Assembly: GCA_964016885.1 (NCBI GenBank)
Contig: OZ024747.1
Location: forward strand, 2,914,001-2,978,000
Direction of reading: 5' to 3'
Source of the DNA: Eledone cirrhosa
Lineage: Eukaryota
DNA length: 64,000 bases
Shown: piece by piece, positions 34,798-35,498 of the stretch
Layout of the letters: every line of letters begins with the position of its first letter
Position numbering within the stretch: the stretch's first letter is position 1
Program-made: the position numbers and the translations under genes
Notes under the pieces: model-generated
What the model saw: only the letters and a program-made list of their open reading frames with translations
What the model was told of the DNA's origin: nothing
Database searches by the model: none

Positions 34798-35018
34798 GTT
34801 TCCCTCCATGGGAACCATAACCTGCCAATCATTGGCTGCAGCAGATATTACATATACACCATATTTGCTTAGACTGCAGACCTCTCTTACACATTCACAT
34901 AACAACACAGACCAACCCTCATAACACTGCAAGCATACAACAGTAGCAGCAACTATACAACTCTACAGCAGGATACACATGTGCTAACAGTAAACTAGAG
35001 AAGAATTTTCCAGCATAG
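34798..35018 (+). promoter_or_regulatory. Putative promoter and non-coding first exon of the protocadherin gene
   Basis: Palindromic GCCAAT-C-ATTGGC at 34824-34836; ends in a consensus donor AG|GTGAGT (intron starts 35019); colinear homologue at 61510-61744; the next strong acceptor TTTCTTTCAG (37944) precedes the Pcdh ATG. TSS not determinable. Confidence 0.75.
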
Positions 35019-35498
35019 GTGAGTGTACAATTCCTTTTCTTATTCTATCATATTTTTGTGTTAATTTAAAAAACAAAAACAACTAAATTATGTTTAAATG
35101 TTATAATAAATATAACCACACACAAAGTCACTGTTTACAAATAACATTATGAACAACAGCATCTAACCAATAACACTGAAAGGAGCTGGAAAGTAACAAG
35201 TTTGTTTGGGTTTTGCTTTTTTTTTTAATTCCTTAATAAAATAGTTTTTTTAGAATTTGGTTCCATTCAATAATAATTGTTTCTACTTTAGGCACAAGGC
35301 CAGCAATTACCCAGTACATTATTCAATAATAATACATTAAGATTAGGATGAAAAGTAAAATGTAAATTATTGTTTAACTCATGAAAATAACATATTACAA
35401 AAAAGACTTTTTAACTTGATAGATTGAGGTCCTTTAAATTTTATTTTTATTTTTTAGAAGCATTATTTCTTTATATATTTCTTTTGTTTTTGTTTTTG

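Follow-up and report, generated by a model that had tools for sequence, protein, structure and literature searches.

The regulation of the independently expanded protocadherins (Pcdhs) of cephalopods is described as an open question (excerpts of PMC10658181), and the present locus raises it in a concrete form: is a conserved non-coding block upstream of a Pcdh exon the promoter and first exon of that gene, is it common to the array, and does it resemble the elements that control the vertebrate clusters? The window (the whole 64,000-nucleotide stretch that was analysed, C7:2914001-2978000) belongs to a genome of 3.0 Gb in which arrays hold at least 150 Pcdh exons. A sequence-only reading of the window had described a block ending in a GTGAGT donor, with a second copy downstream, and had proposed it as a cluster-wide promoter signature centred on a palindromic double CCAAT box. 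The block, its motifs and its second copy are where that reading had put them: GTGAGT lies at 35019-35024 and 61739-61744, with 26,720 bp between the donors, and self-BLAST of the window matches 34589-35024 to 61314-61744 (E 1.7e-67). The similarity is blocky, as had also been claimed, and it ends at the donor, past which identity in the pairwise alignment falls. The Pcdh exon of the second copy lies beyond the window, about 6.2 kb downstream, at C7:2981939. The cassette, as the block is called here, has the following parts.

34751..34867, + strand: upstream module, a likely proximal promoter (profile A3, E 1.4e-29; alignments)
34805..34815, + strand: TCCATGGGAAC block, a putative factor site (cross-copy comparison)
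34825-34835 (second copy 61538-61548), no strand: CCAATCATTGG palindrome (positions located in the sequence)
34831-34835: inverted CCAAT box (ATTGG) within CCAATCATTGG, the sole part of the palindrome that the family shares
34839-34854 (second copy 61552-61567), + strand: CAGCAGATATTACATA block (pairwise alignment, copy comparison)
34933..35018, + strand: downstream module, the leader core with CAG triplets (profile A2, E 6.5e-21)
34961-34978: CTCTACAGCAGGATACAC, inside the downstream module
35019..35024, + strand: predicted 5' splice donor GTGAGT (GT invariant in 18/18 aligned copies)
61464..61581, + strand: second copy, upstream module (profile A3, E 1.1e-22)
61650..61744, + strand: second copy, downstream module and donor (profile A2, BLAST, gene map)

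Whether a cassette of this kind is needed by the gene can be judged from the coding exon.

37945..40393, + strand: large Pcdh exon (ORF, Pfam, exon parsing)

The open reading frame at 37919-40456 encodes a cadherin-repeat protein (Pfam Cadherin, E 4e-67). The large exon has an acceptor before 37945, a predicted 5' UTR of 73 nt and an ATG at 38018; it encodes a signal peptide, cadherin repeats and a transmembrane segment, and a donor-like GTAAGT follows at 40394. This arrangement is general, as an own methionine and signal peptide lie 0-177 nt below a T-rich acceptor in 19/19 parsed exons (21 examined), and 12 of these 19 have an in-frame stop between the acceptor and the methionine. Every one of the 19 thus has its signal-peptide ATG below an acceptor, which calls for a non-coding exon further upstream. 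The donor of the cassette, to judge from its sequence, fits this role: as expected of a first exon, the donor is conserved, and the exon that follows has an acceptor and then an ATG of its own. Of the first 15 C7 genes, the window gene has 3.0 kb between cassette and exon, and the remaining 14 have 4.6-72 kb. On the sense strand, C/A-rich, ATG-poor sequence starts at about the CAGCAGATATTACATA block, some 20 bp past ATTGG; between ATTGG and the leader core there are 5 ATGs vs. 23 expected from shuffles, a deficit that cannot be read as a p-value because the copies are non-independent. The downstream module is the predicted 3' part of a non-coding first exon, and it possibly holds the core promoter as well. 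A TATA/Inr reading of this module is not robust, with TATACAA in 4/18 copies and TCAGTT in 2/18.

A smaller exon could be imagined instead, in which only the last ~50 nt, beginning at the GAT after a YAG and running up to the donor, would be an internal, non-coding micro-exon, with the real promoter at some other place. An AG before GAT or AAT is indeed invariant in 18/18 aligned copies, 45-56 nt above the donor. However, the 18 nt before this AG are only 48% pyrimidine and 23% T, vs. 81 and 68% in the best coding-exon acceptors, the AG is missing in the leader type of the C2 240 Mb array, and the CCAAT module would stay unexplained, all of which makes a micro-exon highly improbable.

If the cassette is a gene start, it should occur once per gene. 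Cassette positions were collected by BLAST, motif patterns and profile searches; all counts are lower bounds, as is the Pcdh exon map (150/452 candidates scored, plus one further gene). BLAST of the genome with the cassette returns 22 pieces, all on the + strand, placed at C7 2.16-4.83 Mb, at C2 335.6-336.3 Mb and, for a single 5' half, on C8; Pcdh exons occupy the matching C7 and C2 places on the matching strand (150 of 452 candidates scored). Scattered genome matches obtained with one cassette query stem from a CA microsatellite that the query contains. Along C7, 21 cassettes and 23 known Pcdh exons share one strand and alternate, with two cassettes never adjacent, although four of the 21 are a single module or a weak match, and three pairings that span 143-326 kb are uncertain and may skip unlisted genes. 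The alternation is strict over the first 15 C7 genes, and the C2 Pcdh array holds seven further cassettes. Two half-cassette motif patterns give 13 matches each, 25 of the 26 in Pcdh arrays and the remainder at the C8 orphan, while their reversed-pattern controls give 2 and 0; the 13 matches of the downstream-module pattern all lie inside Pcdh arrays. The 21 genes sampled from the C7 and C2 regions form one clade (SH-aLRT 100) in a quick tree of 29 rows, drawn with midpoint rooting; the cassette tree is poorly resolved. BLAST, patterns and the C7 map thus bear out a single cassette for each Pcdh gene, on the gene's own strand and within Pcdh arrays only.

The idea of a piece of a transposon, or of a structured non-coding RNA, finds its one point of support in the C8 half-copy, for which the 20 kb examined gave no Pcdh match. 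Every other copy sits within a Pcdh array and is oriented like the genes, so that the transposon-like scatter that the sequence-only reading had named as fatal to its proposal is not seen, nor is dispersal in both orientations independent of the gene family. As for RNA structure, RNAalifold predicts 0 pairs when the downstream module is folded, and Rfam gives one chance match outside the cassette (E 0.77). This explanation is already largely refuted and is scarcely credible. The C8 orphan itself (C8:30029422-30029914; L010, L145) consists of ~500 bp of the L003 upstream flank and upstream module at 85% identity, without the leader core, and may serve as a neutral-decay control.

The second part of the question is what the upstream module shows. 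The palindrome had been presented as the longest invariant block, which holds for the two window copies; in the family, it is present in 5/23 upstream modules, and most copies read CCTGTCATTGG or similar. As a family signature the palindromic double box is therefore rejected, and its two pentamers lie only one base apart on opposite strands. The palindrome requires two changes on the gene tree, and most copies are already quasi-palindromic (CAGCC...GGCTG), a TG-to-AA change being enough to perfect them; it is likely a derived two-base change and not a double site. A template-switch mutation would perfect a quasi-palindrome in one step. Seven of the 11 genome matches of the palindrome 14-mer lie outside C7, none with cassette context. 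Antisense transcription from a symmetric site, which had also been suggested, is not supported, and most copies are non-symmetric.

What the family does have in common is a single inverted CCAAT box at a constant distance from the TCCATGGGAAC block: from the end of GGGAAC to ATTGG it is 15 bp in 15/16 copies that keep GGGAAC and 16 bp in one. The NF-Y consensus is CCAAT with a purine-rich 5' flank and a (C/G)(A/G) 3' flank, and the minus strand reads YAGCCAATSA in 20/23 copies, which agrees with this consensus. No CTCF-like site is present in any of 18 cassettes at <=2 mismatches to a CTCF-like consensus. Of the NF-Y-like, CTCF-free logic that had been proposed, the CCAAT context and the lack of CTCF-like sites stand, whereas the double box does not. 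A TGACTCA, which we take to be an AP-1-type site, occurs 90-99 bp upstream of ATTGG in 9/23 copies, eight of these nine having it at -90 to -92; it is absent from both window copies. The TCCATGGGAAC block may resemble COE/EBF or Su(H)/RBPJ sites and, in three C2 copies, an E-box. An RFX X-box was rejected for this block, since the degenerate consensus (RYYNYY N1-3 RRNRAC; PMC2375033) failed in 23/23 copies and only its right half fits.

Microsatellites put >1 kb between the modules of cassettes L020 and L045, so fixed spacing between modules is not needed. CA, CT and CAA expansions of up to 1.3 kb occur within cassettes (L020:250-1560, L045:190-1500, L058, L012), and such microsatellites, between or within modules, are a possible source of tunable expression differences.

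Is the similarity among cassettes more than shared descent? It might for the most part be sequence that was inherited, or homogenised by gene conversion, around a plain first exon and that has little specific regulatory role apart from the donor, and the window pair taken alone would fit this. Its cassettes are 72-81% identical, vs. 97% for the fourfold sites of the coding exons, which are nearly identical outside EC2, and the first introns share another block (79.5% over 683 columns). With the cassette less conserved than synonymous sites and a further shared intron block, the pair alone shows no constraint. Gene conversion is moreover strong in the array, both here and in excerpts of PMC9068888. 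The distant copies behave differently and appear constrained. For 71 of 78 gene pairs, those with <65% protein identity, fourfold sites are 47% identical against a floor of 33%, while the modules reach 68-69%, the adjacent intron 54.5% and shuffled modules 50-53% (one aligner), figures that are paralogue comparisons within one genome and are inflated, as modules were delimited by conservation and most copies were found by similarity. Invariant columns across eight distant copies number 28/86 in the downstream module vs. 6/80 for fourfold sites (Fisher p 8e-5), and 2/81 and 2/38 in intron. The upstream module has 16/105 invariant columns vs. the same 6/80, which is not significant (p 0.12). The choice of modules and copies inflates these column counts as well. 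Cassette similarity follows synonymous-site similarity only weakly (Mantel rho 0.25, p 0.07). The sequence-only reading had required that the cassette be better conserved than neighbouring intron, and this holds for the distant copies.

The upstream module also offers the plain-inheritance argument a second foothold, as its ATTGG box decays in copies found without similarity bias. Fifteen Pcdh genes were picked that had no known cassette, and five of them showed a module, in one case weak (E 0.035), within 10-30 kb upstream; ATTGG is intact in one and decayed in three of the four upstream modules found in this unbiased way. A frameshifted gene that keeps an intact cassette likewise speaks against constraint: the gene that follows cassette L014 (L148, C7:~2700500-2703300) is frameshifted in its signal-peptide/EC1 region and is likely a pseudogene. 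Against mere inheritance stand the invariant blocks with their fixed 15-bp and 90-92-bp spacings, an adjacent intron at background (0.545 vs. 0.50-0.53 for shuffled sequence), and a leader core that is common to arrays outside the clade. On balance, we regard inheritance with no function beyond the donor as improbable.

That leader core marks how far the signature extends. Four tight arrays on C2 were sampled, and the upstream module was detected in none of them (best E 0.84). The downstream profile, in contrast, has one hit per gene (E about 1e-5) in the array at C2 238.4 Mb and weak hits at 240 Mb. Three of these arrays have a related leader core, GCCATTGTCACAC...CAGCAGCA...donor, which lacks the CCAAT box and occurs 14 times among 16 long Pcdh ORFs; 36/37 genome-wide matches to the leader-core pattern lie at C2 238-240 Mb, and a C11 match is taken as chance, with no donor and no Pcdh in 18 kb. 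At C2 252.4 Mb the leader is of another kind, expanded in CAG/CAA, and six donors go with six ORFs. Leaders at C2:239.98-240.03 Mb (L086-L090) have TGACGT where the 238.4 Mb type has TGACTCA, and in the three copies viewed in the 240 Mb array a AACCAATCAG box in forward orientation precedes the donor by about 390 bp. Since the leader core is present in other arrays in which the CCAAT module is undetected, the leader core is older and wider and the CCAAT module is clade-specific. The term 'cluster-wide' is therefore apt for one cassette per gene within the clade and too broad for the CCAAT part, which is undetected in four C2 arrays and decayed in three of four unbiased copies.

An inherited, constrained promoter and leader in each gene, with NF-Y on one inverted box and partners at fixed spacing, is probably what accounts for the observed single same-strand copy per gene, conserved donor, excess conservation of the 3' module and inverted CCAAT box at a fixed distance. 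NF-Y would bind the single inverted box, with a partner on the TCCATGGGAAC block and, in 9/23 copies, on TGACTCA. Transcription would start between about 34850 and 34990, and the predicted non-coding first exon would be spliced from 35018 to the acceptor before 37945. The cassette would have been copied with each whole-gene duplication and then kept by selection, and may provide a shared neural baseline for the clade, with gains and losses of sub-elements tuning expression by cell type.

A more ambitious proposal is that the cassettes are equivalent, CTCF-free promoters that compete for a shared distal enhancer, so that neurons pick random Pcdh subsets. A near-equivalent element per gene in a same-strand array would suit such a scheme, and a review, data-free on this point, anticipates that the Pcdh clusters of cephalopods may be subject to cohesin-like and stochastic processes (excerpts of PMC10658181). 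Gene conversion that spares EC2, as in the window trio described below, is likewise expected if isoform identity matters. Vertebrate Pcdh choice, however, rests on CTCF sites, methylation and antisense lncRNA (excerpts of PMC7811963), and the cassettes lack CTCF-like matches. They carry 0-5 CpGs per 300 bp in 22 array copies (eight in the C8 orphan), so a vertebrate methylation switch has little substrate. In octopus, a cell expresses about 19 Pcdhs and a neuron 21, ubiquitous and cell-type-specific members are found, and expression shows no clear difference by genomic location (excerpts of PMC9712504); squid Pcdhs fall into the same two classes (excerpts of PMC12240821). These published single-cell data leave random choice unsupported, and shared promoters follow from duplication alone. 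We consider random choice among equivalent cassettes unlikely. The fuller version, an octopod equivalent of the vertebrate conserved sequence element (CSE) in which a CTCF-free NF-Y module of fixed spacing ahead of a conserved leader exon turns dozens of promoters into interchangeable targets of shared enhancers, and in which probabilistic barcodes go together with conversion sparing the specificity domain, is likewise unlikely; if true, it would mean that cephalopods had converged on the neuronal barcode of vertebrates in promoters as well as in proteins, using other parts.

The window trio comprises three neighbouring Pcdh genes (window 38066-40393; C7:2981939, L061; C7:2832732, L060) whose EC1, EC3 and EC4 are 99.7-100% identical in nucleotides and whose EC2 is only 73-80% identical. 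This pattern suggests gene conversion sparing EC2, with assembly error also possible, and parallels the escape of EC2-EC3 from conversion in vertebrate clustered Pcdhs (excerpts of PMC4978886). Three other Pcdh pairs are about 100% identical over EC4 and 60-81% over EC1-EC2. Cassettes L015 and L016 (C7 2.485 and 2.367 Mb) are 98% identical over 600 bp, with EC1-EC3 protein identity of 50-66% between their genes, which may reflect promoter-level gene conversion.

The first intron of the window gene contains one further conserved block.

36575..36930, + strand: non-coding intron 1 block (3 matches genome-wide, alignment)

It is found only in the three closest paralogues and is near-identical over about 200 bp between two of them. 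Its GTTTCCTTGGCAAC at 36634-36647 (14-mer) fits the X-box consensus of PMC2375033, and an acceptor-like site is also present. A coding role was rejected, with no Pfam match above cut-off, no PDB match and stops in 2/3 copies; substitutions are spread 9/16/13 across frames, giving no coding signal. The block may be an enhancer, an extra UTR exon or a conversion tract, each possible from its sequence. Elsewhere in the window, two LINE-like fragments (14255-15684 and 41583-42905) are 91% identical, with pieces at 61011-61308 and elsewhere, and we take them to be reverse-transcriptase fragments, a label read from the translation. Near-perfect inverted self-matches are present at 54675-55051 (377 bp), 7778-7921 (144 bp) and 20082-20187 (106 bp).

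As the predicted gene starts lie kilobases from the coding exon, scans just above the ATG would miss them. The literature searched, which includes excerpts of PMC6339937, PMC9068888, PMC9795677, PMC10658181 and PMC4978886, gave no account of a promoter element or leader exon in cephalopod Pcdhs; published gene models may already include these first exons. The term 'CCAAT' is absent among the literature matches listed on cephalopod Pcdh regulation, and 'promoter' and 'exon' are absent from the excerpts of PMC9795677. About 28 candidate promoters are now mapped for one clade, with distinct leader types for other arrays, which makes reporter, footprint and single-cell tests direct; shared cassette type can be compared with shared expression, and fixed with random choice. 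All this is moderately surprising, since related promoters are usually retained after gene duplication. In ordinary tandem families, the promoter and a non-coding first exon are copied per gene, in subfamily-specific versions. Like such promoters, the cassette is copied with the whole gene, one each, in subfamily-specific versions; unlike them, its blocks persist near synonymous saturation (0.47 vs. a floor of 0.33) and its leader core extends across arrays.

The vertebrate CSE is a CTCF-bound element some 200 bp above the large exon's start codon; it contains a CGCT box and is paired with a site in the exon and an antisense lncRNA (excerpts of PMC7811963 and PMC4978886). Like the CSE, the cassette is one conserved, same-orientation element per Pcdh promoter in a tandem array, and its subgroups have different versions, as in Xenopus gamma2 15-36 (excerpts of PMC7811963 and PMC4978886). 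In contrast to the CSE, it has no CTCF signature and few CpGs, CGCT in either orientation being present once in 6/18 cassettes (650 bp each) and in none of the other 12; it lies 3-70 kb or more upstream with an intron between, and it ends in the donor of a separate, predicted non-coding exon. The cephalopod genes are also whole duplicates without the shared constant exons of the vertebrate clusters (excerpts of PMC9068888). Human functional CCAAT pairs peak 31-32 bp apart and are bound by two NF-Y (excerpts of PMC4982600); five copies of the cassette resemble such promoters in having two pentamers, but these are one base apart on opposite strands, and 18/23 copies have a single box. The W/SXY module of MHC class II promoters offers a likeness, in that the order, orientation and spacing of its boxes, which include an inverted CCAAT, are fixed and the composite recurs in promoter after promoter of a gene family (excerpts of PMC7866136), although an X-box is present in 0/23 cassette copies and no X2 or S box is identified. 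The cassette is therefore placed like the vertebrate CSE yet fails its defining features, and by analogy it may work like a module of the W/SXY type without being one, no homology being implied.
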